Part shown: one piece after another, positions 1 through 28,560 of the stretch
Layout of the letters: each line of letters starts with the position of its first letter
Numbering within the stretch: position 1 is the first letter of the stretch
Source: Candidatus Omnitrophota bacterium
GTDB lineage: Bacteria > Omnitrophota > Gorgyraeia > Duberdicusellales > 4484-171
DNA: 32,000 nt
Direction: 5' to 3'
NCBI GenBank assembly: GCA_021735045.1
Contig: JAIPHU010000002.1
Span: forward strand, 30,001-62,000
The notes under the pieces: model-generated
Databases searched by the model: none
What the model was told of the DNA's origin: nothing
What the model saw: the letters and a program-made list of their open reading frames with translations, nothing else
Translations under genes and position numbers: made by a program

Positions 1-617
1 GCTCCGGTTGAAAGAGGACAGGAAAAAGTATAGAAAGCTGTTTTGTAGTCATATATTTTATAGATATCAGATTTTTTCAGTTTATTTAGGGGCTTAATCC
101 CATTGATCAGTTCAATGAATTCACCGGATCCAGTAAATATGGCTGCTTTAACAAAGTTACGCAAAGCTTTTTCTTTTCGTCCAAAATTTTCTTTAATTGA
201 CAAGAAAGCATTGATTGCCAGCGCATAAACAATATCTCCAACTACAATTCCCAGATCATTACCGTTAAATTTTGCTTTTTTGTTTTTAGCTAAATAATTA
301 TCAAACATTGCATGCATCGAGGGTTTGCCACGGCGGGTTTCTGACTTATCAATTATATCATCATGGATTAGCATAAAGTTGTGAAGTAGTTCTATCGAAA
401 GCGCACTTTGGTAAAGTCCGGCTGCGGATTTATTTTTATAGCCTTGGTAACCAACTATAAATAAGATAGGTCGGATTCTTTTTCCCTTGCGGAGGCTAAA
501 ATCTTTAATTTTATTAAAAAGAATCGGTGAGATAGAAGATAAAGAGTAGTCTTTATCTAGTTTGGCGAGGAAACCAGAAAGATTCTTATCAATTTTCTTT
601 TTTATTTTTAAAAACAT
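1..617 (-). CDS. polyprenyl (farnesyl/geranylgeranyl) diphosphate synthase family protein. The N-terminal ~205 aa are present and the 3' end runs off the left edge.
   Basis: This gene is not in the ORF track because it has no stop in the window. My reverse-strand translation from ATG 617..615 reads MFLKIKKKIDKNLSGFLAKL...RKGKRIRPILFIVGYQGY...LSIELLHNFMLIHDDIIDKSETRRGKPSMH. This contains the first aspartate-rich DDxxD motif typical of trans-isoprenyl diphosphate synthases. Confidence 0.8.
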   Translation of the reverse strand, partial: MFLKIKKKIDKNLSGFLAKLDKDYSLSSISPILFNKIKDFSLRKGKRIRPILFIVGYQGYKNKSAAGLYQSALSIELLHNFMLIHDDIIDKSETRRGKPSMHAMFDNYLAKNKKAKFNGNDLGIVVGDIVYALAINAFLSIKENFGRKEKALRNFVKAAIFTGSGEFIELINGIKPLNKLKKSDIYKIYDYKTAFYTFSCPLSTG

Positions 618-4033: not shown

Positions 4034-4222
4034 ATGAAGGTAAAAGTTGATCCAGAAAAATGTATCGGTTGTCAAATGTGTGTGCAGGTTGCACCTGATC
4101 TATTTGAGATGAAAGAAGATAAAGCTGAAGCAAAGGTTGAAGAAGTGCCTGAAGACAAACAGGATGAAGCTAAACAATCCTCAGAACAATGTCCTGTAGA
4201 TGCAATCTCGATTGAAGAGTAA
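4034..4222 (+). CDS. small single-cluster ferredoxin
   Basis: CIGCQMC...CP cysteine pattern (Cx2Cx2C plus distal CP) in an acidic 62-aa protein. A strong SD (TAGGAGG) precedes it. Confidence 0.85.
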   Translation: MKVKVDPEKCIGCQMCVQVAPDLFEMKEDKAEAKVEEVPEDKQDEAKQSSEQCPVDAISIEE

Positions 4223-4282: not shown

Positions 4283-4311
4283 TTGCATGCTTATTTATTT
4301 TAAGATACAAT
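4283..4311 (+). promoter_or_regulatory. sigma70-like promoter for the response regulator / histidine kinase operon
   Basis: TTGCAT (4283..4288), 17 nt spacer, TACAAT (4306..4311). The predicted transcription start (TSS) near 4318 falls at the start of the octamer repeat. Confidence 0.55.
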
Positions 4312-4313
4312 TT

Positions 4314-4390
4314 AATTAACCAATTAACCAATTAACCAATTAACCAATTAACCAATTAACCAATTAACCAATTAACCAATTAACCAATTA
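4314..4390 (+). repeat. perfect tandem octamer repeat (AATTAACC) x9.6, G-free on the + strand, ending directly at ATG 4391
   Basis: Read directly: 9 complete AATTAACC units (4314..4385) plus AATTA (4386..4390). No mismatches and no SD. Confidence 0.97.
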
Positions 4391-5104
4391 ATGCCTTACT
4401 CAATCCTTTTAGTTGATGATGACAAAGTATTTCAGCAAGAATTCATAGCTTCTTTCGATGATTATTCAATCGTTCCTGCCTGTTCAGGAGAAGAAGCGCT
4501 AAAGATATTAAGCAAACCGCATGAAATCGATTTGGTTTTACTGGATGTGATGCTGCCTGGCCAACGGGGGACTAAAATCCTAAAAAAGTTAAAAAAAACC
4601 AAACCAGAGTTGAAAGTAATAATTTTAACTGGTTACAGCAACAAAGATATTGCCATTGAGGCCTTAAAGGCTGATGCTGATGATTATCTGGAAAAGCCCC
4701 TTGATTTAGAAAAGGCAGCGGCTATCTTTGAACAATACTTAAAGTATGGAACCAAAAGGAGTAATTTAGGCGCAAGTAGTATTGAAGAAAAAATTGCCAG
4801 GGTAAAAGAGTATATCCAGCGCAACTACCATACCCAAGTTTCTTTAAATGATGCTGCAAAAATAGTTTTTTTAAGCCCGAAATACTTAAGCCGGGTTTTT
4901 GCAAAGGTAACCGGTCAAGGGTTTAATCAATTTAAGCTTTCTTGTAAGATTGACAAAGCCAAAGAGCTGCTTCAGAAAAGTTCCTTAACTATTGAACAGA
5001 TTTCTTATCAATTAGGTTATCAAAATATCGAATCTTTTGTCCGGATTTTTAAAAAGTTTACTGGTAAAAGACCGACTCAATTTCGTAAAAAAAAGAAAAA
5101 ATGA
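4391..5104 (+). CDS. two-component response regulator, receiver domain plus AraC-type HTH output
   Basis: Receiver motifs LLVDDD, DLVLLDVMLPG and ILTGY are present. The C-terminal AraC HTH reads IEQISYQLGYQNIESFVRIFKKFTGKRPTQFR. Confidence 0.88.
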   Translation: MPYSILLVDDDKVFQQEFIASFDDYSIVPACSGEEALKILSKPHEIDLVLLDVMLPGQRGTKILKKLKKTKPELKVIILTGYSNKDIAIEALKADADDYLEKPLDLEKAAAIFEQYLKYGTKRSNLGASSIEEKIARVKEYIQRNYHTQVSLNDAAKIVFLSPKYLSRVFAKVTGQGFNQFKLSCKIDKAKELLQKSSLTIEQISYQLGYQNIESFVRIFKKFTGKRPTQFRKKKKK

Positions 5105-6621
5105 AACAAAATTTAATTTTATCTCAGTGTCGGCTTGCTAAATTAATTGATGAGCCAGTGATCACCTGTGATTTAGATAATAAAATTTTGCTTTGGAATC
5201 AGGGAGCCGAGAAAAAATACGGTTGGACAAAAGAAGAAGCACTAAATAAAGATGAAAATCAACTGCTAAAAACAAAAGCCAATCAAGATTTTCGCCAAAT
5301 TAAAAAAGAAATTAAAAAGAAGGGGAAATGGGAAGGTGAGTTAGTTCAGGAAAAAAGTGATGGTAGAAAAATTATTGCCTGGAGCAAATGGGTTTATGAT
5401 CGAGATCAAGCCGGAAATCCGATCGCAATAATTAAAATTAACAATGAAATCACTCACCAAAAAAGAATGGAAAGTGCCCTAGAGAACGCTTATCAGGAAT
5501 CAGAAAAAACTGCAATTAAACGTACGATAGAGCTGCAAGAAGCAAATGAACTTTTGGCCCGAATATTTTCGTCAACTTATGTTCTTTTTGCTTATCTGGA
5601 TATCAACTTTAATTTTATCACTGTGAATAAAGCTTATGCTGATGCAGAAGGAAAATCGATCGATTATTTTCCCGGCAAAAATCATTTCGATCTTTATCCT
5701 AATCAAGAAAATTTAGAAATATTTAAAAAAGTGCTGGCAACCGGAAAAACCTATCTTTGTTACGAAAAACCCTTTATTTATCCAGATCAGCCGCAAAAAG
5801 TCACTTATTGGGACTGGACTCTGGAGCCGATTAAAGATCCTTTTGGCGAGGTGGAAGGGTTACTTTTATGTTTAGTAGATGTAACCGAAAGAAAACTGCA
5901 ACAAAAAGAACTGATTGAGACCGAGAAAGAATTGTCTGGTGCTCAGCGTTTATCCAGTCTAGGAACATTGTCGGCAAGTATCGCTCATCAATTGCGCACT
6001 CCTTTAGCGGTGATTAAAATGGCTACCTTTAATATTAAAAGAAAAAGCAAGAATCCCGAAATTGCAAAACATATTGAAAATATTGAGAAAAAAATATCAG
6101 AAAGCAGCCATACGATCACCAACCTCTTAGCTTATTCTCGCCTGAAGCAACCGGATTTTGAAGAAGTTTATCTGGATCAGTTGTTGACTGATTGCATCAA
6201 AACTCACCAAAAACTATTTTCGAAAAAAAAGATTAGAATCAAAAGAGATTTAAAAAGTTTAAAAAAAGTTTTATTTAAATTAGATTCCTATCAAGCCCAA
6301 GAAATTTTTAATAATATTCTCACCAATGCTTGTCAAGCTTCGGCTGAAAAGAGCACGGTTGAAGTCAAAGCCGAAAAAGGAAGCGACTTTAAATTTTTAA
6401 TTAAAATTTCCGACCAAGGTTTGGGGATTAATAAAGAAAATATAAAAAGAATCTTTGAGCCGTTTTTCTCCCGCAAAAAAACAGGCACCGGCCTCGGTTT
6501 AAGTTTGGTTAAAGAGTTAGTGGACCTAAATCGGGGAAAAATCAATATAGAGAGCAAAGAAGGAAGAGGAACCACAGTTACTCTAGAATTTTCCGCCGAA
6601 AGCATACCTGCCCGTACTTAA
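5101..6621 (+). CDS. PAS-domain sensor histidine kinase
   Basis: Two PAS-like regions are present, with H-box SIAHQLRTPL, N-box NNILTNACQA, and G-boxes DQGLGI and GTGLGLSLV. Its start overlaps the response regulator stop (ATGA). Confidence 0.88.
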   Translation: MKQNLILSQCRLAKLIDEPVITCDLDNKILLWNQGAEKKYGWTKEEALNKDENQLLKTKANQDFRQIKKEIKKKGKWEGELVQEKSDGRKIIAWSKWVYDRDQAGNPIAIIKINNEITHQKRMESALENAYQESEKTAIKRTIELQEANELLARIFSSTYVLFAYLDINFNFITVNKAYADAEGKSIDYFPGKNHFDLYPNQENLEIFKKVLATGKTYLCYEKPFIYPDQPQKVTYWDWTLEPIKDPFGEVEGLLLCLVDVTERKLQQKELIETEKELSGAQRLSSLGTLSASIAHQLRTPLAVIKMATFNIKRKSKNPEIAKHIENIEKKISESSHTITNLLAYSRLKQPDFEEVYLDQLLTDCIKTHQKLFSKKKIRIKRDLKSLKKVLFKLDSYQAQEIFNNILTNACQASAEKSTVEVKAEKGSDFKFLIKISDQGLGINKENIKRIFEPFFSRKKTGTGLGLSLVKELVDLNRGKINIESKEGRGTTVTLEFSAESIPART

Positions 6622-6700: not shown

Positions 6701-6763
6701 GTAGAAAAAAGTCAAAAAAAGGGAGAAACTCCCAGTTTCTTTATTGTTTAGATTAGTTAATAT
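6701..6763 (+). promoter_or_regulatory. conserved bipartite motif plus promoter, copy 1 (upstream of polX)
   Basis: GTAGAAAAAAGTCAAAA (6701..6717), N14, CCAGTT (6732..6737). The -35 position is TTTCTT (6736..6741), followed by a 16 nt spacer and TAATAT (6758..6763). Confidence 0.55.
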
Positions 6764-6800
6764 ATAGTTAACTAAAGAATATAAAACAAGGGAGCATCCT

Positions 6801-8522
6801 GTGCCAATCCATAATAATAAAATAGCAGATATTTTTTCCGAAATTGCCGATCTTTTGGATATCCAAGACGAGAACCAATTTCGGATTAGGTCCTACCGTA
6901 ATGCTGCTCGCACTATTGACGGTTTAAGCCAGAGTGTGGCTGAAATGGTTAAAGAAGGGAAAGATTTATCCAAGCTTTCCGGTATTGGTAAAGATCTTGC
7001 CCAAAAGATTGAAACTATTGTCAAAAAAGGGAGTTTGCCGCAGTTGAAGAAATTACGCAAAAAGACTCCCCAGAGTTTAAGTACGATCATGAAAGTAGCG
7101 GGCCTAGGGCCCAAAAAAGTGAAAGCAATGAATAAGAAATTAAATATAAAAGCCTTAAAAGATTTAAAGAGAGCTGCCAAAGCGGGAAAAGTTAGTCAAT
7201 TAGAAGGTTTTGGTAAAAAGACCGAGAAAAATATTTTAGAAAATATTGGTCAAATTGAAAGCGGAGAAAAACGGAAAAAGATATTGGCGGTAAAACAGTT
7301 AGCCGAGCCTTTAATTGCTTATTTAAAAAAAGATCAGAGCCTAAAGGATATATCCACCGCTGGAAGTTACCGGCGCAAAAAAGAAACCGTAAAAGACTTA
7401 GATATTTTGGTTACCCACAAGAGTAAGTCAAAAATTATGGATCACTTTACAAAATATGAAGATGTAAAAAAGGTAATAGCTAAAGGAAATACCAAATCAA
7501 CCGTTAAGTTGCGTTCTGATTTCAATGTTGATCTACGTTCGGTAGCCAAATCAAATTATGGCGCGGCTCTTTTATACTTTACCGGTTCTAAAGCGCACAA
7601 TATTGCAATTAGAAAAATCGCGGTAGCAAAAAAGTATAAGTTGAATGAATACGGCTTATTTAAGGGAAAAAAAAGAGTTGCCGGAAAAACTGAAGCAGAG
7701 GTTTATCACAAATTAGGGCTTAAATATATTGCGCCGGAACTACGCGAAAACCGAGGTGAGGTAGAAGCGGCAAAGAAGAATAAACTGCCGAAATTAGTGA
7801 AGCTCAAAGATATAAAAGGAGACTTTCATGCACACAGCAAAAGCACCGACGGTAAAAATACAATTGAAGAGATGGCCAAAGCGGCCAAAAAAATCGGTTA
7901 TAAATACCTGGCAATTACCGATCATACTAAGAATGTAACGGTAGCCGGTGGCCTGGATGAGAAAGCTTTTAAAAAACAGATAAAAAATATTGATCAGGCA
8001 AACAAAAAAATAAAAGGGATTACCCTGCTTAAAGGCGCAGAGGTGGACATTTTAAAAGATGGCTCGCTTGATTTGCCAGATTCGGTATTAAAAAAATTAG
8101 ATGTAGTAGTTTGTGCAGTTCACTACAACCGCAATCTTTCCAAGCAAAAACAGACTAAAAGAGCGCTCAAAGCGATGGATAATCCTTATTTTCAGATTTT
8201 CGCTCATCCTTCCGGGCGATTAATCAATGAGCGCAAGCCTTACGAAATTGATCTGGAAAAAGTGATGCAGAAAGCAAAGCAAAAGAATATAATTTTAGAA
8301 TTAAATGCTCATCCCAAACGGCTTGATTTAAATGATGCAGATGTAAAAAGAGCCAAAGAAATGGGGATAAAAATAGCTATTGCTACAGACGGCCATTCAA
8401 CCGATGACCTAAAGCTTATGGGGTATGGCCTCGGTCAAGCCCGACGGGGCTGGTTGGCTAAAAAAGATGTGATAAATAGTTATAGTTTAAGCCAGCTTAA
8501 GGACGTATTAAGAAAAAAGTAA
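6801..8522 (+). CDS. polX: family X DNA polymerase with C-terminal PHP domain (PolX)
   Basis: HhH motifs (LSGIGKDLAQKI), a pol-beta nucleotidyltransferase core (GSYRRKKETVKDLDILV) and a PHP domain (GDFHAHSKSTDG, ITDH, ELNAHP, TDGH) are present. GTG start with SD AAGGGAG. Confidence 0.9.
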   Translation: MPIHNNKIADIFSEIADLLDIQDENQFRIRSYRNAARTIDGLSQSVAEMVKEGKDLSKLSGIGKDLAQKIETIVKKGSLPQLKKLRKKTPQSLSTIMKVAGLGPKKVKAMNKKLNIKALKDLKRAAKAGKVSQLEGFGKKTEKNILENIGQIESGEKRKKILAVKQLAEPLIAYLKKDQSLKDISTAGSYRRKKETVKDLDILVTHKSKSKIMDHFTKYEDVKKVIAKGNTKSTVKLRSDFNVDLRSVAKSNYGAALLYFTGSKAHNIAIRKIAVAKKYKLNEYGLFKGKKRVAGKTEAEVYHKLGLKYIAPELRENRGEVEAAKKNKLPKLVKLKDIKGDFHAHSKSTDGKNTIEEMAKAAKKIGYKYLAITDHTKNVTVAGGLDEKAFKKQIKNIDQANKKIKGITLLKGAEVDILKDGSLDLPDSVLKKLDVVVCAVHYNRNLSKQKQTKRALKAMDNPYFQIFAHPSGRLINERKPYEIDLEKVMQKAKQKNIILELNAHPKRLDLNDADVKRAKEMGIKIAIATDGHSTDDLKLMGYGLGQARRGWLAKKDVINSYSLSQLKDVLRKK

Positions 8523-8537
8523 AAGAAGGAGGTAGTA

Positions 8538-8774
8538 ATGACAAAAGAAGTTTTAGTCTATAGCACAGCAACTTGTCCTTATTGTCAAAAGCTAAAAGAG
8601 TATCTAAAAAAAAATAATCTTAATTTTACTAATTATGACGTCTCTAGTGATCAAGAAAAACTAGAAGAGATGAAGGAGAAATCTGGACAAATGGGAGTGC
8701 CGGTTATTGATATTGATGGTGAAATCATTAAAGGGTTCGATCAAGAAAGGTTAAATCAGGTTTTAGGAATTTGA
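8538..8774 (+). CDS. glutaredoxin-like / NrdH-like small thiol-disulfide oxidoreductase
   Basis: CPYC active site near the N-terminus, GVPV...G thioredoxin-fold motifs, 78 aa. Strong SD. Confidence 0.85.
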   Translation: MTKEVLVYSTATCPYCQKLKEYLKKNNLNFTNYDVSSDQEKLEEMKEKSGQMGVPVIDIDGEIIKGFDQERLNQVLGI

Positions 8775-8797
8775 TAATTTTGGTTTAAAGAGGCAAG

Positions 8798-9187
8798 ATG
8801 GATATGGCCAAGAAGAAAAAAAATATTATGATTGTTGATGATGATGACGATTTACGCAATGAGTTATCAGAAATCATGCGTGAGGAAAATTATGAAGTAG
8901 AAGCTTTTTCAGACGGTAGGGAAGCTTTGGCTAAAATTACAGAGCTTCATCCCCATGTTTTACTTCTCGATATTAGAATGCCGAAAATAAATGGAATTCA
9001 AATGTTGGATAGGTTAAGAAGCAGGAACGCGATTGACGGGACAAAGGTCATCTTAATTACCGGATTTTATGATCAACAGAAATGCAAAAGAATATTGCAG
9101 ATATACGATGCAGATTCATATTTATTAAAACCTTTTGACCCGGAGGATCTGATAAAGAGAGTTGAAACAATCACTAAAGAGAATTAA
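8798..9187 (+). CDS. receiver-only (CheY-like) response regulator
   Basis: IMIVDDDDD, VLLLDIRMPKINGI and LLKPF receiver signatures, with no output domain. Confidence 0.85.
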   Translation: MDMAKKKKNIMIVDDDDDLRNELSEIMREENYEVEAFSDGREALAKITELHPHVLLLDIRMPKINGIQMLDRLRSRNAIDGTKVILITGFYDQQKCKRILQIYDADSYLLKPFDPEDLIKRVETITKEN

Positions 9188-9231
9188 TAATTAGAGTTTA
9201 AAATAAGTTAAAAATTTTATTAGGAGGAGAA

Positions 9232-10134
9232 ATGGAAGAAGTTGTAATCGTGGGAGCAGGGATCTCCGGCCTTACTGCTGCAATTTATGCAAAGCGGAAA
9301 AAAATGGATTTTGTTCTGTTGGGGGAAAATTTTGGCGGTCAATTTCTCGAATCGGGGAAAATCAATAACTATCCCGCAATTACAGAGATTAACGGTACAG
9401 AATTGAGCAAAATGTTTGAAAAGCAACTTAAATTTAATCAAATTGAACCAAAAATCGGGGAAAAAATTACTAAAATTAGCAAGATTGATTCTGGTTTTAA
9501 GCTAGAAGGTAAAAAGGATAACTATCAAGCCAAAACGGTAATTATTGCCACGGGTTCTCATCCGAAAAAACTGAGCATCAAGGGTGAAGAAGAATTTGCG
9601 AACAAAGGTTTAACTTATTGTTCAATTTGTGACGGCCCTTTATTCTCTGGTAAAACTATTGCTGTAATTGGCGGAGGTAATTCTGCCTTAGAAGGAGTTG
9701 ATTTTACGCATAAGGTTGCGAAAAAAATTTATTTAATTAATATTGACCAAAAATTTAACGCTCATCAGGAATTAATTGATAAAGCTACTGCTTACGATAA
9801 TGTTGAAGTGGTTAATGAAGCAGAAACTGAAGAAATCTCGGGAGAGAAAATGGTAACTGGCCTTAAATACAAAAAAGACGGAAAAATGCATGAGTTAGCT
9901 GTTGACGGAGTAATTGTTGAAATCGGCAGAACTCCGAATACGGATTTTTTAGAAGGTTTTCTTCAATTAAATAACAAAAAACATATCCAGATAGATTGTC
10001 AGTCTAGGACTTCCGTAGAAGGGGTGTTTGCTGCCGGAGATTGTGCCTCGGGTAATGAATACCAGTATGCGATTGCTGCCGGCCAAGGCTGCATAGCTTT
10101 ACTGAAAGCTGCCCGCTATCTAGCCGGCAGATAA
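9232..10134 (+). CDS. trxB: thioredoxin reductase-like FAD/NAD(P)H disulfide oxidoreductase
   Basis: FAD site GAGISGLTAA, redox CxxC CSICDG, NAD(P)H site GGGNSALEG and the GDCA motif are present in a 300-aa protein. Confidence 0.85.
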   Translation: MEEVVIVGAGISGLTAAIYAKRKKMDFVLLGENFGGQFLESGKINNYPAITEINGTELSKMFEKQLKFNQIEPKIGEKITKISKIDSGFKLEGKKDNYQAKTVIIATGSHPKKLSIKGEEEFANKGLTYCSICDGPLFSGKTIAVIGGGNSALEGVDFTHKVAKKIYLINIDQKFNAHQELIDKATAYDNVEVVNEAETEEISGEKMVTGLKYKKDGKMHELAVDGVIVEIGRTPNTDFLEGFLQLNNKKHIQIDCQSRTSVEGVFAAGDCASGNEYQYAIAAGQGCIALLKAARYLAGR

Positions 10135-10147
10135 CCATGGTACCACT

Positions 10148-10166
10148 GTGCACACCCGGTGTGCAT
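10148..10166 (+). other. short GC-rich hairpin between trxB and the hemerythrin gene
   Basis: GTGCACAC (10148..10155), CCG loop, GTGTGCAT (10159..10166). There is no T-tract. Confidence 0.4.
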
Positions 10167-10195
10167 ATAAATAGGACAAGAATGAGGAGGTAGAA

Positions 10196-10762
10196 ATGAG
10201 CAGTGAAAGAAAGTATAAGGTGCAGCCAGCTGGCCCTTTAATGAAGGAGCACCGAGTAATTGAAAAAATGGTATCTTTACTTGAAAATGAAAGAAAAACT
10301 TTAGAAAAAAGTGATGTTGATGTTTGCTTTCTAAAAATTGCAGTAGATTTTTTCCGGTTTTATGCAGATCATTGCCATCATGGTAAAGAGGAAGATATTT
10401 TATTTTCCAGATTGGAAAACAAGGAAATAAGCAAAGAGCATCAAGAGATTATGGAAGAATTATTTGCTGACCATAAAAAGGGGCGTAAGTTGACCAAAGA
10501 GTTAGATCAATTGGCGGATAAAGCAAAAGAAGCAGGTACTAAAGACAGGGTTGTAAATATTTTAGATGAGTTAGTTTCTTTGTACCGCCAACATATCCAA
10601 AAGGAAGATCAGCAATTTTTTTTACCGGTTATGGATTATTTTGATAATGTCGAAAAGGATGCAATGATCGATAAGTTTTTTGATTTTGATAAAGATTTAA
10701 TTCACAAGAGATATAGTAATATAGTTTCTGAATTAGAAGAAGAAAAAAATGGTGAGAAATAG
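10196..10762 (+). CDS. hemerythrin-like (HHE cation-binding) domain protein
   Basis: Histidine and glutamate-rich metal-ligand motifs are present (EHRVIE, HCHHGKEEDILF, HIQKEDQQFF). Confidence 0.7.
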   Translation: MSSERKYKVQPAGPLMKEHRVIEKMVSLLENERKTLEKSDVDVCFLKIAVDFFRFYADHCHHGKEEDILFSRLENKEISKEHQEIMEELFADHKKGRKLTKELDQLADKAKEAGTKDRVVNILDELVSLYRQHIQKEDQQFFLPVMDYFDNVEKDAMIDKFFDFDKDLIHKRYSNIVSELEEEKNGEK

Positions 10763-10789
10763 TTATGGTTAACAAAAGAGGAGATTTAT

Positions 10790-11374
10790 ATGGATAAAGC
10801 ATTATTGATAATTGATTTACAAAATGATTTTTGTCCGGGAGGAAAATTACCAGTTCCCGAAGGAGACAAGATAGTTGAACCTTTAAACAACTATATTCAG
10901 ATTTTTCAAGCAAAAGATTTACCGATTTTTGCTTCCCGTGATTGGCATCCGGAGAAGACCAAACACTTTAAACAGTTTGGGGGCAGGTGGCCTAAACATT
11001 GCATCCAAAACACAAAAGGAGCAGAATTCCATCCGGAGTTAAATTTACCTGAATCAGCAGTAGTTTTATCCGCCGGGATGGACCCGGAATCTGAAGGTTA
11101 TTCCGTTTTTGAAGGAAGAAGCCAGAATCAGAAAAGATTCCAGGGGCTGTTGGAGGAGCAAAATATCCAAGAGCTTTATATTGGTGGATTGGCTACCGAA
11201 TTTTGCGTCAAGCATACTGTGTTGGAAGCATTGGAAAGGGGGTTTAAGGTCTGGCTTTTAGTCGATGCGGTATTGGGGATTGATTCAGAAGAGGCAAAGA
11301 AGGCTAAAGAGGAAATGACCGCCAAAGGCGCAAAAACGATAACCCTCAAACGTTTGTCCAAAGTTAAAAAGTAG
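10790..11374 (+). CDS. pncA: nicotinamidase/pyrazinamidase (isochorismatase family)
   Basis: LLIIDLQNDFCPGG N-terminal motif, DWHP, and catalytic-Cys context GLATEFCVKHT. Confidence 0.85.
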   Translation: MDKALLIIDLQNDFCPGGKLPVPEGDKIVEPLNNYIQIFQAKDLPIFASRDWHPEKTKHFKQFGGRWPKHCIQNTKGAEFHPELNLPESAVVLSAGMDPESEGYSVFEGRSQNQKRFQGLLEEQNIQELYIGGLATEFCVKHTVLEALERGFKVWLLVDAVLGIDSEEAKKAKEEMTAKGAKTITLKRLSKVKK

Positions 11375-11433
11375 ATAAAAGTCAAAAAATGTGCGAAAAT
11401 ACCAGTTGTATTTGTTAGCTATTGTAATATCAT
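11371..11433 (+). promoter_or_regulatory. conserved bipartite motif plus promoter, copy 2 (upstream of the superoxide reductase gene)
   Basis: GTAGATAAAAGTCAAAA (11371..11387, overlapping the pncA stop), N14, CCAGTT (11402..11407). Then TTGTAT (11406..11411), 16 nt spacer, TATCAT (11428..11433). Confidence 0.6.
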
Positions 11434-11451
11434 AAAACAAAAGGAGGTAAA

Positions 11452-11847
11452 ATGGCAGAGCTTGAAAAATTATATCAATCTGCGGATTGGAAACAAGAGA
11501 AGCATGTTCCGGTAATCGATGCACCGGAGAGCGTAAAAAAAGGAGAATTTTTTTCAATTGAGGTAACTATCGGTAAAGAAGTCGCTCATCCAAACAAAAC
11601 CGAGCATCATATTGCTTGGGTAGATGTTTATTTTCAACCGGAAGGGTCAAAATTCCCTTATCAGATTGGAAAGACTGAATTTAGTTCCCACGGGGCATCA
11701 ACAGAAGGGCCGGATACTAGCTCTGTTTACACTCATCACAGGACATCGTTAAGTTTTAAAACAGATAAAGCCGGCACGCTTTTTGCATCGAGTTATTGCA
11801 ATATTCACGGCCTCTGGGAAAACTCAAAAAAAATATCTGTTAAATGA
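11452..11847 (+). CDS. superoxide reductase (1Fe-SOR / neelaredoxin-type desulfoferrodoxin family)
   Basis: EKHVPVI, HPNKTEHHIAWV and CNIHGLW iron-ligand motifs. There is no N-terminal desulforedoxin domain. Confidence 0.88.
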   Translation: MAELEKLYQSADWKQEKHVPVIDAPESVKKGEFFSIEVTIGKEVAHPNKTEHHIAWVDVYFQPEGSKFPYQIGKTEFSSHGASTEGPDTSSVYTHHRTSLSFKTDKAGTLFASSYCNIHGLWENSKKISVK

Positions 11848-11872
11848 CAATTTAATTAAATAAGGAGGTTTT

Positions 11873-12163
11873 ATGAATGAAGATTTAAAAAAAGCTTATC
11901 AGGAAAAGACTGAAGCCAAGCTCAAAGAGTGGTCGGCTAAACTTACCGAATTAAAAGGAAAAACAGCCGGCCTAGGAGAAGAGGCAAAAGCTAATGCAAA
12001 TAAAAACATTCAAGAACTACAAGGAAAAATCGAACAAGGAAAAGAAAAGTTAGCTGAACTTCGCCAACAAGGTCAAGCCAATTGGCAGGAGACAAAAACT
12101 AAGATAGAAGGAATATCTGAAGGGATAAAAAATATGATTGATGAGCTTAAATCAAAAAATTAA
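11873..12163 (+). CDS. small coiled-coil protein of unknown function
   Basis: 96 aa, K/E/Q-rich with heptad-like periodicity. A strong SD precedes it and an intrinsic terminator follows. No catalytic motif was recognised. Confidence 0.6.
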   Translation: MNEDLKKAYQEKTEAKLKEWSAKLTELKGKTAGLGEEAKANANKNIQELQGKIEQGKEKLAELRQQGQANWQETKTKIEGISEGIKNMIDELKSKN

Positions 12164-12186
12164 TTTTTAGTTGGAAATAAAAATTG

Positions 12187-12213
12187 CCCGGGGCTTTGTC
12201 CCGGGTTTTTTTT
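12187..12213 (+). terminator. intrinsic terminator
   Basis: CCCGGG (12187..12192) pairs with CCCGGG (12200..12205), followed by T8 (12206..12213). Confidence 0.85.
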
Positions 12214-14020: not shown

Positions 14021-14084
14021 GTGGAAAAAAGTCAAAATAAAGTAGATAGAGCCAGTTGTTTATTGGCCTAATTTGTAACAAAAT
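14021..14084 (+). promoter_or_regulatory. conserved bipartite motif plus promoter, copy 3 (upstream of the ferredoxin-fragment ORF and rtcB)
   Basis: GTGGAAAAAAGTCAAAA (14021..14037), N14, CCAGTT (14052..14057). Then TTGTTT (14056..14061), 17 nt spacer, CAAAAT (14079..14084). Confidence 0.5.
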
Positions 14085-14111: not shown

Positions 14112-14240
14112 ATGGAGGTTTTTAATTTAGAAAACGGGAAAGCAAAAATTATTGTTGATCAAGTTCCCAAAGAAGTTGAAGTCAAGTGCAAAGAGGCTAC
14201 AGCAAATTGCCCGGTTGATGCAATTACAATAGAAAAATAA
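14112..14240 (+). CDS. 42-aa ORF resembling only the C-terminal half of the small ferredoxin (truncated paralog or mini-protein)
   Basis: It is below the ORF-track size cutoff. My translation is MEVFNLENGKAKIIVDQVPKEVEVKCKEATANCPVDAITIEK. Compare residues 24-62 of the ferredoxin at 4034..4222: FEMKEDKAEAKVEEVPEDKQDEAKQSSEQCPVDAISIEE. The Cx2Cx2C part is missing. Confidence 0.4.
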   Translation: MEVFNLENGKAKIIVDQVPKEVEVKCKEATANCPVDAITIEK

Positions 14241-14283
14241 CAATCTTTTAAAAATAAGGCTCAGGTTATAATTGAGGAAGTTT

Positions 14284-15741
14284 ATGCAGATTATAAATAA
14301 ATTAGAAAAAATTTCTGAAGCGGTTTGGGAGATTCCTAAAACTTACCAAAAAGGAATGCTTGTTCCGGCCCGGTTTTATGGCACTGAAAAAATAATTGAA
14401 GCTATCGAAGGCGGGGTATTACAGCAAATTGCTAATGTTGCTACTTTACCTGGGATTGTAAAAAATGCAATATGTATGCCGGATGGCCACCGGGGTTATG
14501 GTTTCCCGATTGGAGGGGTTGCTGCTATGGATTCTGAAGTAGGGGTGATTTCTCCGGGAGGAATAGGTTTTGATATTAATTGTGGAATGCGGCTCCTCAA
14601 CACTAACTTAAGCTACGATCAAGTTAAGCCGTATATAAACAAGTTGATTAACAAGTTATTTCAAAAAATTCCTGCTGGGGTTGGAAAAAAAGGATTTATT
14701 AAAATAAGCCAATCCGAGTTTAGGAAATTAGTTGAGCAAGGTTCTCGCTGGTGTATCGATAATGGATTTGGCTGGCCCCAAGATTTAGAAAGAACCGAAG
14801 AAGGAGGAAGGTTTCCCGGTGCAGATTCGAATTGCGTAAGCAGAAAAGCGATTGAAAGAGGCTATAGGCAGGTAGGTACACTGGGTTCAGGAAATCATTA
14901 CCTAGAAGTTCAGGTTGTAAAACCAGAAAATATTGCTGATAAAGAACTGGCTAAACAGCTCGGTATTAAAGTTCCTAATCAGGTGGTGGTGATGTTTCAT
15001 TGTGGTAGCCGTGGCTTTGGCCATCAAATTGGCACTGATTATCTGCAAAGTTTTTTAAAAGTTATGCAATCAAAGTATGGAATGAAAATTAGAGATAAAG
15101 AGTTAGCCAGCGCTCCTTTTAAGTCCAGGGAGGGGCAAAACTATTATCGGGCGATGCAGTGTGCAGTAAATATGGCTTTTGCTAATCGCCAAGTGATTTT
15201 ACATAGAATAAGAGAGGTGTTTGCCGAAGTTTTTAATAAATCAGCAAAAGATTTAGGGATGAACCAAGTTTATGACGTAGCGCATAATACTGCTAAATTA
15301 GAAAAACATCAAATCGAAGGTAAGACAAAAGAGCTTTTGGTGCACCGAAAAGGTGCAACCCGAGCTTATCCGCCGGGTTCAGAAGATCTGCCTTCTTTCT
15401 ATAAAGAAACCGGCCAGCCGGTTATAATTGGCGGGAGCATGGAAACCGGCTCATATCTTTTGGTGGGTTGTAGTTCGGGTAAAGATACTTTCTATACTAC
15501 TGCTCATGGAAGTGGTAGAATTATGAGTCGAACTAAAGCAAGAAAAAAATTTCGCGGAAAAAGTTTATTAGCGAAATTGAAAGAAAAAGGGATTTACGTT
15601 AATGCAGCTTCTTTATCAGGTTTGGCTGAAGAAGCAGGTGGTGCTTATAAAGATATTGATGAAGTGGCAAAATCAATTCAGTTAGCCGGAATCAGCAAGC
15701 CGGTAGCAAAACTTGTTCCGATAGGAAACATAAAAGGGTAA
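14284..15741 (+). CDS. rtcB: RNA 3'-phosphate ligase RtcB
   Basis: MPDGHRGYGFPIGGV, GSGNHYLEVQ, HCGSRGFGH, HNTA and HGSGR motifs are present. I prefer ATG 14284 (SD GAGGA at 14274..14278) over the TTG at 14272 used by the track. Confidence 0.92.
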   Translation: MQIINKLEKISEAVWEIPKTYQKGMLVPARFYGTEKIIEAIEGGVLQQIANVATLPGIVKNAICMPDGHRGYGFPIGGVAAMDSEVGVISPGGIGFDINCGMRLLNTNLSYDQVKPYINKLINKLFQKIPAGVGKKGFIKISQSEFRKLVEQGSRWCIDNGFGWPQDLERTEEGGRFPGADSNCVSRKAIERGYRQVGTLGSGNHYLEVQVVKPENIADKELAKQLGIKVPNQVVVMFHCGSRGFGHQIGTDYLQSFLKVMQSKYGMKIRDKELASAPFKSREGQNYYRAMQCAVNMAFANRQVILHRIREVFAEVFNKSAKDLGMNQVYDVAHNTAKLEKHQIEGKTKELLVHRKGATRAYPPGSEDLPSFYKETGQPVIIGGSMETGSYLLVGCSSGKDTFYTTAHGSGRIMSRTKARKKFRGKSLLAKLKEKGIYVNAASLSGLAEEAGGAYKDIDEVAKSIQLAGISKPVAKLVPIGNIKG

Positions 15742-15743
15742 TT

Positions 15744-16919
15744 ATGATAAAAAGGGCAAAAGATCCAGTTTGTGGAATGAGCGTGGATAGGAACAAGGCA
15801 TACAAGTTGGATTATCAAGAAGGAACATATTATTTTTGTAGCAAGCGATGCCTTAATCGCTTTAGAGAAAAAAATAAAGTTAAACTGGGGGAAACTAAAA
15901 GTTGTCAGTCTTGCAAGAAAGCGCCATTTTATAAAAATAAGGTTTTTCGGGTAGCCAGTATTTTAATGTTGCTGGTAGTGCTTTCATATTTTTTTCCACT
16001 GTTAGTTCCTTTTCGGAAATCGTTATGGGATTATTTTAAAATTATTTGGTGGGCGGTGTTATTGGGATTTTTGATCGGGGGGATTATAGATCATTATGTA
16101 CCTAGAAAATATATATCTCAAGTTCTTGCTCGTTCTGGTAAGCGGACGATTTTTTACGCAGTTTTTGTAGGATTTTTAATGAGTGCATGCTCGCATGGAA
16201 TACTTGCATTATCTATTCAGCTTTATAAAAAAGGAGCATCTGTTGCTTCGGTAGTAGCTTTTCTTTTAGCTTCTCCCTGGGCCAATTTGCCACTTACAAT
16301 AATTATAATTGGATTTTTTGGTCTTAAAGCTTTATTTATAATAATTTCTGCGATAGTAATTGCAATAATTACCGGTTTAATTTTTCAATTTCTTGACAAA
16401 AAGAGTTTAATTGAGAAAAATCCTAATTCGGTTGATTTTGATAAAAATTTTTCAATATTTAAAGATATTAAAAAAAGATTTAAAGAATATAAATTTTCAC
16501 TTTCAAGTTTTGCCATAGATGCAAAAGGTATCTTTGAGGGTGCTGTCTCATTAGCAAATATGGTTTTGTGGTGGATTTTAATTGGGGTGGGTCTTGCAAG
16601 TTTAGCCTCAGCTTATTTACCTAAAGATTTATTTCAGCAATACATGGGGCCAACCATAGCCGGACTACTTATTACTTTATTGGTCGCTACTGTAGTTGAA
16701 GTGTGTTCGGAAGGTTCGGCTCCGATGGCATTTGAAATTTTTCGGCAAACTAAGGCTTTAGGTAATAGTTTTGTTTTTTTGATGGCAGGGGTAGCTACTG
16801 ACTATACTGAAATCGGCCTTATTTGGACAAATATTGGTAAAAAAACAGCTATTTGGTTGCCAGTTATAACAGTTCCACAAGTTATATTATTAGGTTTTGT
16901 TGCGAATTCAATATTTTAG
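15744..16919 (+). CDS. TRASH/YHS metal-binding domain fused to a COG0701-type (ArsP-like) permease
   Basis: The N-terminus DPVCGMSV...YYFCSKRC is the TRASH/YHS cysteine pattern. It is followed by multiple TM helices with conserved cysteine motifs, SACSHG and VCSEGSAP. Confidence 0.75.
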   Translation: MIKRAKDPVCGMSVDRNKAYKLDYQEGTYYFCSKRCLNRFREKNKVKLGETKSCQSCKKAPFYKNKVFRVASILMLLVVLSYFFPLLVPFRKSLWDYFKIIWWAVLLGFLIGGIIDHYVPRKYISQVLARSGKRTIFYAVFVGFLMSACSHGILALSIQLYKKGASVASVVAFLLASPWANLPLTIIIIGFFGLKALFIIISAIVIAIITGLIFQFLDKKSLIEKNPNSVDFDKNFSIFKDIKKRFKEYKFSLSSFAIDAKGIFEGAVSLANMVLWWILIGVGLASLASAYLPKDLFQQYMGPTIAGLLITLLVATVVEVCSEGSAPMAFEIFRQTKALGNSFVFLMAGVATDYTEIGLIWTNIGKKTAIWLPVITVPQVILLGFVANSIF

Positions 16920-16952
16920 ATCTAAAGATAGTTTCTGGCAAAGGAGGAATTT

Positions 16953-18272
16953 ATGTTGTCAAAATTACTAAAATTTATTAAGCATGACATTTGGCGGATG
17001 CGCTTAAAAGATCTTGATCGATCTAAGTCACTTTTAATAAAACCACTTAGAATTTTACTTTTAGCTTTGCGTGGGTTTAATGAAGATAAATGTCAACTAA
17101 GAGCATCTGCCTTAACTTTTTATTCTCTTTTATCTATTGTGCCTGTGGTAGCCATGGCCTTTGGGGTTGCTAAAGGTTTTGGGTTCCAAGAAACGCTTCA
17201 AGATCAACTTTTAAATAAAATCCCTGGCCAGGAAGAAGTGATGCTAAAAATAGTTAACTTTGCTCATTCTTTATTGGCTAATACACGTGGCGGGCTTGTA
17301 GCTGGAATTGGTGTTGCTATTTTATTTTGGACGGTGATCAAGGTATTGGGTAATATCGAGAAATCTTTTAATGACATCTGGGGGGTTAAGCAACAACGTT
17401 CTATAGGCCGTAAATTTAGTGATTATTTATCGATAATGCTAATTTGCCCAATCCTTATAATTGCCTCAAGTAGCGCAACTGTTTTCTTAACTACTCAAAT
17501 AAAAGTTATTATAACTAAGGTAGAATTTCTTGGTGCATTTTCACCGTTAATTTTGTCAACATTAAAAATATTACCTTATTGTATAATCTGGTTAGTTTTT
17601 AGTTTTATCTACATCTTTATGCCAAACAGTAAAGTTAATCTTAAATCCGGGATAATAGCGGGTATAGTAGCCGGTACTATTTATCAATTAGTGCAGTGGG
17701 GGTACGTCAACTTTCAAGTCGGGGTATCTAAGTTTAATGCTATTTATGGTAGCTTTGCGGCTTTACCCTTATTTTTGGTTTGGTTGCAAATCAGTTGGTT
17801 AATTGTTCTTTTGGGCGCAGAAATATCTTTTGCTGATCAAAATGTTGATACTTATGAGTTTGAACCAGATTGCCTAAATATAAGCTATTCTTTTAAGAGG
17901 CTGCTTACCCTTGAGGTAATGAATCTATTGGTGGTTAATTTTTCTAAATGCAGGCCAACTATGACCGCTGATCAGATTTCACATAGTTTAGACATACCAA
18001 TCCGTTTAGTTCGTGAGATAATTTTTGAACTAAGTAAAAGCGGGATGATTTCTGGGGTTCAAACTGCTGAATATAAAGAAATTGCTTATCAGCCTGCCTG
18101 TGATATCAATAAGCTCACTATAAAACGGGTAATCAATTCTTTAGAAGATACAGGAGTTGATGATATTCCGGTGGCTAAGACTAGACAGCTAGAGGTTATC
18201 TCAAAGAAGCTTGAGGTTTTTGATAAGGCATTAGAAAATTCATCCAGCAATACACTTTTAAAAGATATATAA
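16953..18272 (+). CDS. YihY/BrkB family membrane protein with a C-terminal extension of about 130 aa resembling a winged helix
   Basis: ALTFYSLLSIVP and GSFAALPLFLVWLQISWLIVLLGAEISF are YihY family hallmarks. The tail TADQISHSLDIPIRLVREIIFELSKSGMISG looks like a wHTH. Confidence 0.75.
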   Translation: MLSKLLKFIKHDIWRMRLKDLDRSKSLLIKPLRILLLALRGFNEDKCQLRASALTFYSLLSIVPVVAMAFGVAKGFGFQETLQDQLLNKIPGQEEVMLKIVNFAHSLLANTRGGLVAGIGVAILFWTVIKVLGNIEKSFNDIWGVKQQRSIGRKFSDYLSIMLICPILIIASSSATVFLTTQIKVIITKVEFLGAFSPLILSTLKILPYCIIWLVFSFIYIFMPNSKVNLKSGIIAGIVAGTIYQLVQWGYVNFQVGVSKFNAIYGSFAALPLFLVWLQISWLIVLLGAEISFADQNVDTYEFEPDCLNISYSFKRLLTLEVMNLLVVNFSKCRPTMTADQISHSLDIPIRLVREIIFELSKSGMISGVQTAEYKEIAYQPACDINKLTIKRVINSLEDTGVDDIPVAKTRQLEVISKKLEVFDKALENSSSNTLLKDI

Positions 18273-18339: not shown

Positions 18340-18780
18340 ATGGCTATTGAATTATTTAAAAATTTATTTGGGAAAACTAAAAAAACTGCTAAAAAAGCAA
18401 CAGTAAAAAAGAAAGTTAAAAAGAAAAAGTCTGCAAAAAAGAAAGTTAAAAAGAAAAAGTCTGCAAAAAAGAAAACAACTCCGAAAAAAAAGAAGAAAAA
18501 AGCAACTAAAAAGAAAAGCATTAAAAAAGCCCAAGAAAAAGAAATAGGCGTAGTTACTCATTATTTTGGAAAGATTTCAGTAGGTATTATTAAGTTAAAA
18601 AGCAGTTTGAGCCTTGGAGATAAAATAAAAATAAAAGGTGCTCACGTTGATTTTAACCAATCAATCAAATCGATGCAAATAAACCATAAGGATGTAGCTT
18701 CTGCGCGAAAAGGGGCTGAGGTGGGTGTTAAAGTAAAAAAGCGCGTTCATCCTAAAGATAAGGTATATAGGAAAATCTAA
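18340..18780 (+). CDS. lysine-rich N-terminal tail fused to an EF-Tu domain-2-like beta-barrel (translation elongation factor-like protein family)
   Basis: About 60 aa of K-rich low complexity is followed by IGVVTHYFGKISVGIIKLKSSLSLGDKIKIKG...MQINHKDVASARKGAEVGVKV. That segment resembles the small stand-alone EF-Tu domain II-like proteins. Confidence 0.6.
   Translation: MAIELFKNLFGKTKKTAKKATVKKKVKKKKSAKKKVKKKKSAKKKTTPKKKKKKATKKKSIKKAQEKEIGVVTHYFGKISVGIIKLKSSLSLGDKIKIKGAHVDFNQSIKSMQINHKDVASARKGAEVGVKVKKRVHPKDKVYRKI
18411..18470 (+). repeat. perfect 30-bp tandem duplication inside the lysine-rich region (encodes KKVKKKKSAK twice)
   Basis: 18411..18440 is identical to 18441..18470 (GAAAGTTAAAAAGAAAAAGTCTGCAAAAAA). 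Confidence 0.95.
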
Positions 18781-24434: not shown

Positions 24435-25186
24435 CAAATAAAAAAACAATTAGTATATACTTACTTAGTTTGTCTTTTATCCTTTATTTTTTATCCTTTC
24501 CTGCTTATCCAGCTTCTCTAGAAGATGCACAGCGCCAGTATTTGTTTGGTAATTTAGATAAAGCCGTTAGGTTAGCAAAAAGATTAAGAAGTAGTGCCCA
24601 AAATATTTATTTTTTAGGGCTTGTATATATTAAGAAAAAAGAATACAGAAAAGCTCGCTATTACTTTAAAAAAATAATTGATAATTATCAAAATTCTTAT
24701 TTTTATCAAAAAAGTCAAATCAAACTAGCAGATAGTTATTTTTTTGAAGGTAGCTATCAAAAAGCCAATCAGCTATTCACTAATATTTTAAATAAGAAAA
24801 ACCAGAAAAACGATGAACCTTTGATTTTGCTTCGCTTGGCCCAAGTTGCGGCCAAACAGGGAAAGTGGGCCGATAAAGAAAAGTATTCAACTGTTTTAAA
24901 AAATAGATATCCCAATTCTTTAGAAATTAAATATATTAAGATTCTTGATTCTTACGGAAGTTTTTTCACTGTACAAATTGGTGCTTTTAGCGATAAAAGC
25001 AACGCTTTAAATCTATATAATCAAATCTCGAAAGATTTTGATGACCATGTTTTTATTGTTGAAAAAAAGAACCAGGACTTTCCTATCTACAAGGTAAGAG
25101 TAGGGAAGTTTAAAGATCGTTATTCGGTAGAAAAATTGGCGGAAAAATTACAAAATCAAGGTTACCCAACCAGAATTTATCCCTAA
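24431..25186 (+). CDS. TPR-repeat protein with C-terminal SPOR (peptidoglycan-binding) domain and N-terminal signal/anchor
   Basis: A hydrophobic N-terminus is followed by TPR-like YxxA/G repeats. The SPOR-like C-terminus reads FTVQIGAFSDKSNALNLYNQ...YKVRVGKFKDRYSVEKLAEKLQNQGY. Confidence 0.75.
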   Translation: MTNKKTISIYLLSLSFILYFLSFPAYPASLEDAQRQYLFGNLDKAVRLAKRLRSSAQNIYFLGLVYIKKKEYRKARYYFKKIIDNYQNSYFYQKSQIKLADSYFFEGSYQKANQLFTNILNKKNQKNDEPLILLRLAQVAAKQGKWADKEKYSTVLKNRYPNSLEIKYIKILDSYGSFFTVQIGAFSDKSNALNLYNQISKDFDDHVFIVEKKNQDFPIYKVRVGKFKDRYSVEKLAEKLQNQGYPTRIYP

Positions 25187-26145: not shown

Positions 26146-26333
26146 ACAAATAACAAATTCCAAACAAATCCCAAATTACAATAAATAATAAAAGGGAAAT
26201 ATTAAAAAATCCAAATAGTTTTTAATTTGTATATTGTCTATTAGGTATTGTTTGTGATTTGGGATTTGTATATTGTAATTTATTCGCATCTTGTATTTTG
26301 GTTATTGATTATTTCACTGCGAAAAGTTAAACC

Positions 26334-27605: not shown

Positions 27606-27614
27606 TACTAACCT

Positions 27615-27635
27615 ATTCCGTTCCCGCAACGGAAT
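27615..27635 (+). terminator. hairpin immediately after hflX
   Basis: ATTCCGTT (27615..27622), CCCGC loop, AACGGAAT (27628..27635). No clear T-tract. Confidence 0.5.
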
Positions 27636-27764
27636 GAAATTGGTTGATTTTATTTGGTTTTGAGAATTTAAATATATTTAAAAAATAATTTAAAAGTTTT
27701 TGAAAAATAACTTGACAAAATTGTAAATATATTGTATAAATGAGTTGTAAAAAGGGAAAAAGCA

Positions 27765-28043: not shown

Positions 28044-28061
28044 TTTTTTTTTGGGTTATTC

Positions 28062-28088: not shown

Positions 28089-28109
28089 GAATAAAAAAGG
28101 AGGTAAATT

Positions 28110-28556: not shown

Positions 28557-28560
28557 ATTG

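Follow-up and report, generated by a model that had tools for sequence, protein, structure and literature searches.

What controls a group of repair and oxygen-defence genes whose promoters carry one and the same element is the question raised by a 32,000-nucleotide stretch of a Candidatus Omnitrophota genome (assembly GCA_021735045.1, contig JAIPHU010000002.1, positions 30,001 to 62,000; hereafter the window, numbered from its first letter). The element, GTRGAWAAAAGTCAAAA-N14-CCAGTT, occurs three times, at 6701-6737, 11371-11407 and 14021-14057, all on the plus strand and all intergenic, in front of polX, of the superoxide reductase (SOR) gene and of a ferredoxin fragment followed by rtcB. 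A first-pass annotation had described these copies with their shared orientation and N14 spacing, which direct reading bears out at each position, and had suggested a dedicated damage or oxidative-stress regulon served by a regulator or sigma factor. The three-promoter element is real, conserved and non-random. We assign a probability of about 0.68 to the reading that each copy is a ~38-bp composite site for an AraC/XylS-type activator, most likely the phosphorylated form of a response regulator that combines a receiver (REC) domain with an AraC-type DNA-binding domain (REC-AraC) and is paired with a double-PAS kinase.

Within the window the element is confined to these positions. A degenerate 37-nt pattern with up to three mismatches, run over both strands of the 32 kb, matched only the same three sites, and 100 dinucleotide-preserving shuffles gave no match to this pattern. 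The 9-nt core AAGTCAAAA by itself, with at most one mismatch, was not enriched (37 observed vs 31 expected), and therefore the signal resides in the full composite. Similarity among the copies is restricted to motif positions, and therefore they do not represent a repeat family. In all, ~41 kb of the source genome was scanned, comprising the window and ~9 kb downstream of it reached through L129 (assembly GCA_021735365.1), a locus that overlaps the window at ClpB, through which it was found, and is 100% identical to window 23184-32000; the ~9 kb beyond the window contained no additional site.

The link between element and regulator was followed in eight further independent loci picked by REC-AraC homology alone (L121, L122, L123/124, L125/126, L127/128, L130, L131 and L132), which come from Omnitrophota, WOR-1 (L127/128) and other lineages and encode regulators 54-81% identical to that of the window. 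Box 1, the first 17 nt of the element, was found with zero to three mismatches in 8/8 of these loci, sometimes twice, or in 9/9 when the window is counted, and the sites in the eight loci were all intergenic and co-oriented with the next gene. By our estimate a box with up to two mismatches would be expected by chance about 0.03 times per 20-kb locus. Two of the box-bearing genomes have 55-58% G+C, and the A-rich box is conspicuous there. Most sites, 11 of 12 by one count, lie less than 4 kb from the regulator gene; a site at 17641 in L131 is ~7.6 kb from the start of that gene, and the site preceding the ferredoxin-rtcB unit of L121 is ~8.3 kb from its end. In three lineages (L122, L127 and L131) a site is located directly 5′ of the regulator gene itself, which suggests that the regulator is autoregulated there. 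REC-AraC is the only constant DNA-binding protein over the nine loci.

Searches were also performed with the motif itself. A scan of a genome collection (596 Gb) for AAAAGTCAAAA-N14-CCAGTT returned at least 118 stretches, nearly all of them chance matches in unrelated phyla; among the matches listed, only L031, a true orthologue, also has GTRGAW on the 5′ side. This locus, from a Candidatus Omnitrophota metagenome-assembled genome (MAG), is 82-89% identical to the window across the regulator, kinase and PolX region. The two polX promoters are identical from AAATTA, across box 1, the spacer and CCAGTT, as far as TTTCTTTATTGTTT, and the flanks on either side carry substitutions and an indel. A stricter pattern matched one metagenome contig, L120 (1.3 kb), which informs the -35/-10 assignment. 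The L120 gene behind the element (1-232, minus strand) encodes a signal-peptide protein whose N-terminus aligns, non-significantly, with the first helical hairpin of the Aquifex iron superoxide dismutase (Fe-SOD); its identity as a SOD is unproven, as this best PDB match has E=0.73 and no Pfam family matched. Exact-protein look-ups gave no match for PolX or SufC and a single 1-kb contig for SOR.

The anatomy of the element was read from an alignment of 16 sites in nine lineages, ten of the sites being outside the window's own lineage. Element positions 1-17 form box 1 (consensus GTrGAAAAAAGTCAAwA, with G1, G4, A5, G11, T12 and C13 invariant or nearly so), positions 18-21 form a gap (wAAA), positions 22-27 (GgrGAw) repeat, at a distance of 21 bp downstream, the five bases with which box 1 opens, positions 28-35 are variable, and the invariant TT at positions 36-37 starts a sigma-70-type -35 hexamer. 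Box 1, GTRGAAAAAAGTCAAWA, is the strongly conserved distal half-site and lies exactly 18 nt from the -35 hexamer in 16/16 sites. It is made up of two sub-boxes, GTAGA (positions 1-5) and GTCAA (11-15), which are 10 bp apart and supply the highest-information columns of the alignment. The first sub-box recurs at positions 22-26 as GGAGA, GGGGA, GTAGA or GTGTA in 13/16 sites, and the second sub-box of this proximal half-site is conserved within the window's lineage only, as CCAGT. CCAG (positions 32-35) is likewise confined to that lineage, giving way elsewhere to ATTA, CCGC, CCGG, CTTC, GCAA or CCTA while box 1 stays exact. The N14-CCAGTT portion would accordingly be a local form of the proximal half-site, and the conserved layout appears to be box 1, 18 nt and the -35, with a degenerate second half-site in between.

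A weight matrix was built solely from the ten sites outside the window's lineage and used to scan both strands of the window (63,920 positions). The window's three sites took ranks 1-3, scoring 42.4 bits (site 3), 38.8 bits (site 1) and 23.7 bits (site 2), and the next-ranked position reached 13.0 bits inside a coding region, in agreement with the earlier statement that no other promoter in the window has the element. As a control, 867 kb of loci chosen for containing AAAAGTCAAAA-N14-CCAGTT gave a maximum score of 24.9 bits. A weak match at window position 7 and L121 position 3464 lies inside a conserved minus-strand coding region and was taken as chance.

Site 1 (6701-6738, plus strand), 5′ of polX, consists of box 1 GTAGAAAAAAGTCAAAA at 6701-6717 and, after the 4-nt gap, the proximal half-site GGAGAAACTCCCAGTTT (6722-6738), whose last 3 nt are part of the -35 hexamer. 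In site 2 (11371-11408, plus strand), 5′ of the SOR gene, box 1 GTAGATAAAAGTCAAAA occupies 11371-11387 and overlaps the isochorismatase stop codon (TAG); the proximal half-site is TGCGAAAATACCAGTTG (11392-11408). Site 3 (14021-14058, plus strand), 5′ of the ferredoxin fragment and rtcB, has box 1 GTGGAAAAAAGTCAAAA at 14021-14037 and the proximal half-site GTAGATAGAGCCAGTTG at 14042-14058, which opens with GTAGAT as a box 1 does. A hairpin within site 1, GGGAGAAACTCCC, was flagged as terminator-like by a scan and rejected as a terminator because its stem is broken in the L121 orthologue (GGAGAAACTGCC). Reading the sites on the minus strand, with TTGACT (within the reverse complement of box 1) as the -35 of the divergent PilZ gene at site 3, was judged unlikely because sites 1 and 2 lack a gene on that strand and the sole good minus-strand -10 needs a 19-nt spacer.

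The register of the element to the core promoter is fixed. In the window the core promoters, all on the plus strand, are TTTCTT (6736-6741), 16 nt and TAATAT (6758-6763) for the polX operon, spanning 6736-6763; TTGTAT (11406-11411), 16 nt and TATCAT (11428-11433) for SOR and an sll1863-family gene, spanning 11406-11433; and TTGTTT (14056-14061), 17 nt and a weak CAAAAT (14079-14084) for the unit of the ferredoxin fragment, rtcB, YHS-ArsP permease and BrkB, spanning 14056-14084. These hexamers and spacers are those proposed in the first-pass annotation, as is the assignment of the TT of CCAGTT to the start of the -35, which the invariance of this dinucleotide in all 16 sites upholds. The -35 hexamers among the aligned sites include TTGCCA, TTTACA, TTTACG, TTGTTT and TTTACT. 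A -10-like hexamer follows 16-18 nt past the -35 (TATAAT in L120, TATGAT in L123 and L125, TATTAT in L127, L130 and L121), with full sets such as TTTACG-17-TATAAT (L120), TTTACA-17-TATGAT (L123) and TTGTTT-17-TATTAT (L127). The mean best match to TATAAT was 4.56/6 compared with 2.59 ± 0.25 at random positions in the same loci, a value reached in 0/2000 resamplings.

With position 36 set as -35, box 1 lies at about -71 to -55 (centre near -62), and GTCAAAA, which had been placed at an activator position, does fall at about -60 to -54. The proximal half-site spans about -50 to -34 (centre near -41), its 3′ end overlapping the first 3 nt of the -35. Judged by these distances, the two half-sites would occupy the classical class I and class II activator positions. 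Only 2-3/6 positions of the window's three -35 hexamers agree with TTGACA, and a generic sigma-70 promoter scan did not reach its threshold at these element-bearing promoters. The weak -35 of polX is what an activator-dependent promoter would be predicted to show. Other promoters of the window have TTGACA or TTGCAT as -35, with good -10 elements, and no box 1, consistent with the earlier view that the box is more specific than a generic UP element.

A perfect palindrome, TTAGTTAA-N7-TTAACTAA, at window 6753-6775 overlaps the polX -10. Its arms change compensatorily in L031 (GTTAA/TTAAC to GTTAC/GTAAC), and the corresponding place of the L121 promoter is occupied by another palindrome, CTTATAAT-N5-ATTATAAG. 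This palindrome may be a second, repressor-type operator over the activated promoter, or a hairpin of the 5′ leader.

The candidate cognate response regulator is encoded at 4391-5104 (plus strand) and comprises 237 residues with a REC domain and an AraC-type double helix-turn-helix, a YesN-like architecture assigned from Pfam and the translation; the DNA-binding domain takes up residues ~125-237. Its phospho-acceptor set is intact (D9, D10, D52, T80, K102). A soluble histidine kinase in which Pfam finds two PAS domains, HisKA and HATPase_c is the candidate cognate sensor; its gene (5101-6621, plus strand) starts with a 4-nt overlap with the regulator gene, and the pair stands directly upstream of site 1. 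The kinase has an intact H-box (SIAHQLRTPL) and its HATPase_c domain, and no further Pfam domain matched. With catalytic residues intact and genes adjoining, the two belong to the classical two-component systems of histidine kinase and response regulator. The PAS region gave a weak match to the FAD-binding PAS sensor MmoS (3ewk, E=1.5e-4). The two recognition helices, LSPKYLSRVF and GYQN.ESF.R.F, do not vary among nine regulator homologues whose overall identity is only 54-81%, in keeping with the invariance of box 1. Among solved structures, 6swi has the nearest DNA-binding domain of the REC-AraC type (E=5e-12), no NCBIfam equivalog covers the regulator, and a close homologue (P0002, 94% identity) comes from Candidatus Omnitrophica.

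From a good sigma-70 promoter (TTGCAT-17-TACAAT, about 4284-4312) to the REC-AraC start codon, the 5′ leader of the regulator gene is taken up by 9.8 perfect tandem copies of the octamer AATTAACC (window 4314-4391). A further 2.6 copies of the same octamer occur at 28594-28614, just upstream of clpB, and L121 has a different short repeat at the equivalent leader position. The octamer leader could be a copy-number-variable tuner of phase or translation.

Gene calls in the window, backed by Pfam and NCBIfam, place three plus-strand units behind the sites. Operon 1 (6801-11374) encodes PolX-PHP (6801-8522), a glutaredoxin, a REC-only protein, a TrxR-like flavoprotein, a hemerythrin and an isochorismatase-family hydrolase. 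Operon 2 (11452-12163) encodes SOR of the desulfoferrodoxin family (11452-11847) and an sll1863-family stress protein; a strong terminator closes this transcription unit at 12186-12206. Operon 3 (14112-18272), whose extent we infer from close gene spacing, would comprise the ferredoxin C-terminal fragment (14112-14240), the RtcB RNA ligase (14272-15741), a YHS-ArsP permease and a BrkB-family membrane protein. The open reading frame (ORF) immediately behind site 3 retains only the C-terminal 42 residues of a single-cluster ferredoxin and is missing the N-terminal CxxCxxC part; intact 62-residue ferredoxins are encoded by the L121 orthologue (17806-17994) and by a window paralogue upstream of the two-component system (4034-4222). 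The fragment is probably a decaying gene that still gives a leader and a ribosome-binding-site context to rtcB.

The first-pass annotation had called these transcription units functionally coherent, and redox and oxygen-defence genes recur behind strong sites in the other lineages as well. One recurrent arrangement is PolX or DJ-1/PfpI followed by Grx, REC, TrxR, a hemerythrin or second flavoprotein and isochorismatase, with or without SOR; others are SOR with an sll1863-family gene, and ferredoxin with RtcB. Strong sites also precede a series of REC, rhodanese, REC, LDH, SOR and MsrAB; an M50 protease with POR; the regulator with POR; a P-type ATPase and then PNPOx, ferredoxin, SOR, POR, rubredoxin, Prx and DJ-1; Rrf2 with an ODP di-iron protein; and several REC-only and GAF-kinase genes. 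SOR is among the targets in three lineages, and weaker matrix matches lie 5′ of hemerythrin (L131), of REC-TrxR-hemerythrin (L122) and of PNPOx-ferredoxin-SOR (L130). The common theme of the predicted targets appears to be defence against oxygen and reactive oxygen species (ROS) together with protection of oxygen-labile metabolism, to which PolX and RtcB would be additions in the window's lineage. The single-domain receiver (window 8798-9187) is a near-constant member of the element's operons, being present also in L121, L122, L123, L125, L130, L131 and L132, and may act as a phosphate sink or as a connector feeding back on the two-component system.

Comparison with L121, whose regulator is 81% identical to that of the window, points to turnover within the lineage. 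Its conserved site 1 promoter drives DJ-1/PfpI where the window has PolX. The SOR-specific promoter is missing from L121 (15139-15170, compared with window 11371-11452): about 50 nt are absent, of box 1 just the first 10 nt, GTAGATAAAA, are left where the isochorismatase gene ends, and SOR belongs to the operon upstream. The orthologue of site 3 is kept with two changes and is followed by the promoter TTGCTT, 16 nt, TAATAA. The loss of the SOR copy and the replacement of PolX by DJ-1/PfpI suggest rapid rewiring, in which sites would be gained and lost on short evolutionary timescales while the theme of the regulon is kept.

The closest parallel to this arrangement is the araI1-araI2 site of AraC at the E. 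coli pBAD promoter, with RhaS at rhaI1-rhaI2 and XylS at Pm as further examples. At pBAD, AraC binds 17-bp half-sites in direct repeat, of which the proximal one shares 4 bp with the -35 and the distal one has ~100-fold higher affinity, and the core -35 is poor (PMC11983282). The element resembles araI1-araI2 in an asymmetric 17-bp half-site with two sub-boxes about a helical turn apart, in what may be a direct repeat of it with a 21-bp register, seen across lineages in the first sub-box, and in a proximal half-site that overlaps the -35 by 3-4 bp (3 nt here). The distal half-site is well conserved and the proximal one degenerate, as they are strong and weak respectively for AraC, and the -35 is poor in both systems. 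Unlike AraC, the regulator considered here has an N-terminal phospho-receiver, which the PAS kinase would phosphorylate, in place of the sugar-binding and dimerisation domain. Neither a CRP site nor a distal looping operator is in evidence here, the half-site sequence bears no relation to TAGC-N7-TCCATA, and the targets are stress genes rather than catabolic ones.

SoxS, MarA and Rob likewise use an AraC-family domain, which reads an asymmetric ~20-bp marbox at class I or class II positions and activates the genes of a scattered regulon, among them those for superoxide defence and DNA repair. The element shares with these systems the domain family, the asymmetry of the site and the combination of superoxide-defence with DNA-repair targets. 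However, box 1 (GTAG-N6-GTCAAA) differs from the marbox consensus (AYnGCACnnWnnRYYAAAYn) in having no GCAC and a spacing one base longer. The candidate regulator has a REC domain, whereas SoxS and MarA are receiver-less monomers regulated through their synthesis, and 16/16 sites here have one orientation and one register, whereas marboxes occur in both orientations. In architecture (REC with HTH_18/HTH_AraC) the regulator matches the YesN-type proteins represented by PDB chains 6swi and 6swf, annotated as 'Two-component response regulator'; characterised members of this type control sugar uptake and use beside their own genes. In content the predicted regulon is like those of PerR, OxyR and Rex, the usual controllers of SOR, thioredoxin and peroxidase genes in anaerobes, in that SOR, thioredoxin-system, hemerythrin and rubredoxin-type genes are co-regulated. 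PerR and Rex are repressors, and the operators of PerR, OxyR and Rex are dyad-symmetric (Fur-like 7-1-7, ATAG-N7-CTAT and TTGTGAA-N4-TTCACAA), whereas the element is asymmetric and placed in front of the -35, into which it extends. Searches of the literature turned up no relevant paper on the motif string or on a connection between AraC-type response regulators and SOR. Viewed against these systems, the mechanism would be a conventional AraC/XylS class II tandem one, and the oxygen-stress role, conserved across several uncultivated phyla, would be new for the REC-AraC architecture.

The anatomy of the element, its fixed register to the -35/-10 hexamers, the linkage of box and regulator across lineages and the gene content are direct observations, and from them we infer that the PAS-kinase/REC-AraC system activates an oxidative-stress regulon; physical binding, the arrangement as a dimer, the signal and the choice of activation over repression all belong to that proposal. 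The AraC-like geometry, the weak -35 hexamers and the invariant recognition helices lead us to propose a chain from kinase to regulator to polymerase. The PAS kinase would phosphorylate the regulator, and two regulator molecules would then bind the half-sites, probably head-to-tail on one DNA face, where the two sub-boxes of box 1 would suit the two helix-turn-helix units of a single AraC-type DNA-binding domain. The proximal molecule could contact sigma region 4 and the distal molecule the C-terminal domain of the RNA polymerase alpha subunit, such that the bound regulator would recruit RNA polymerase to promoters too weak by themselves. As output, thiol-redox and oxygen-binding proteins would be co-induced with PolX, SOR and RtcB. 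Because the theme of the regulon is oxygen and ROS defence, the signal is plausibly oxygen or redox state, probably sensed through the PAS domains.

The element could instead be the operator of another factor encoded elsewhere, such as an OmpR/PhoB-type response regulator or a different redox regulator, with REC-AraC being a co-regulated neighbour or target. OmpR/PhoB-type response regulators read direct repeats with an 11-bp period (pho boxes), and the G-N-N-R-A blocks of the element at positions 1, 11 and 22, with a period of ~10.5 bp, resemble such tandem repeats of winged-helix regulators. The regulator gene is itself a target in three lineages, as a mere regulon member would be, and Rrf2 genes lie near the sites in L130 and L131. 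However, no OmpR-type (Trans_reg_C) or other DNA-binding gene recurs in the nine loci, the absence of dyad symmetry counts against dimers of the Rrf2, Fur/PerR, Rex and LexA types, and the invariance of the AraC-domain recognition helices parallels that of the box. We therefore regard control by a factor from elsewhere as unlikely. Far less probable is an alternative sigma-factor promoter with GTCAAA as -35 and CCAGTT as -10: their 15-nt distance is promoter-like, the spacing is strict in the three window copies, and the GTT ending recalls the -10 of some extracytoplasmic function (ECF) sigma factors, but CCAG is not conserved in the ten other-lineage sites, where a sigma-70-type -35/-10 is kept at the fixed offset, and no locus examined has a sigma or anti-sigma gene. 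The earlier suggestion of a regulator or sigma factor thus stands in its first half, the regulator most probably being the adjoining REC-AraC, and falls in its second. Equally little credence can be given to a generic UP element or A-tract with -35 context, to mobile or repeat-derived sequence or to chance similarity. The box is A-rich, at the position of an UP element, in an AT-rich genome (35% G+C), yet conserved G, T and C positions (GTAG, GTC, GGRGA) are its most informative columns, in contrast to the A/T-only UP consensus (-59 to -38) of strong housekeeping promoters. The box is moreover missing from the other, stronger promoters of the window, persists in the genomes of 55-58% G+C and is restricted to loci with this regulator, and the shuffle and weight-matrix statistics contradict a chance origin.

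Several points weigh against an AraC-type composite site under REC-AraC control. The entire case rests on comparative sequence, and just ~41 kb of the source genome was scanned for sites. The loci were fetched via the regulator, so its presence is by construction and the presence of the motif alone constitutes the test; the converse, that the motif implies the regulator, rests on the window, L031 and L121, L120 being too short to judge. The proximal second sub-box is unconserved between lineages, and thus the model of a dimer on two half-sites is weaker than the case for box 1. The three G-N-N-R-A blocks could be read just as well by an OmpR/PhoB-type regulator from another part of the genome. 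For the enrichment of -10 hexamers, the null drew random positions rather than solely intergenic ones. Finally, the single-domain REC proteins are also constant neighbours, which complicates the signalling picture.

Two other features of the window were observed. The hsp20-clpB genes are preceded at 28062-28088 by a canonical CIRCE element, the inverted repeat TTAGCACTC-N9-GAGTGCTAA, and therefore these heat-shock genes would be under a regulator other than that of the element; a small MerR-family gene (27765-28043) precedes CIRCE, and hrcA-grpE-dnaK-dnaJ follow 3′ of the window in L129. A lysine-rich ORF (18340-18780) matched no Pfam family above threshold and contains 2.3 perfect copies of a 30-nt tandem repeat (18392-18488) together with degenerate repeats of 12-18 nt.

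Gene regulation in Omnitrophota and neighbouring candidate phyla is almost unknown because these bacteria are uncultivated. The present analysis supplies a testable candidate regulator-operator pair, a well-defined weight matrix and a cross-lineage promoter architecture for predicting regulons in thousands of MAGs, and reconstitution of the pair in E. coli would bypass any need to culture the source organism. A wider interpretation, which we put forward tentatively and at slightly less than even odds, is that the PAS kinase, REC-AraC and the ~38-bp site constitute a new master switch for the response to oxygen and ROS, common to a number of uncultivated anaerobic phyla, Omnitrophota and WOR-1/Saganbacteria among them; in function such a switch would be analogous to OxyR, PerR and SoxRS, with a mechanism unrelated to theirs, and in Omnitrophota it would directly couple the removal of ROS with PolX-mediated DNA gap repair and RtcB-mediated RNA ligation. 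If the regulator-operator pair is confirmed, the anaerobes considered here would control their oxygen defence by a two-component AraC-type activator and not by the OxyR/PerR/Rex repressor-type circuits of cultured bacteria, and DNA repair by PolX and RNA repair by RtcB would be co-induced with superoxide reductase.

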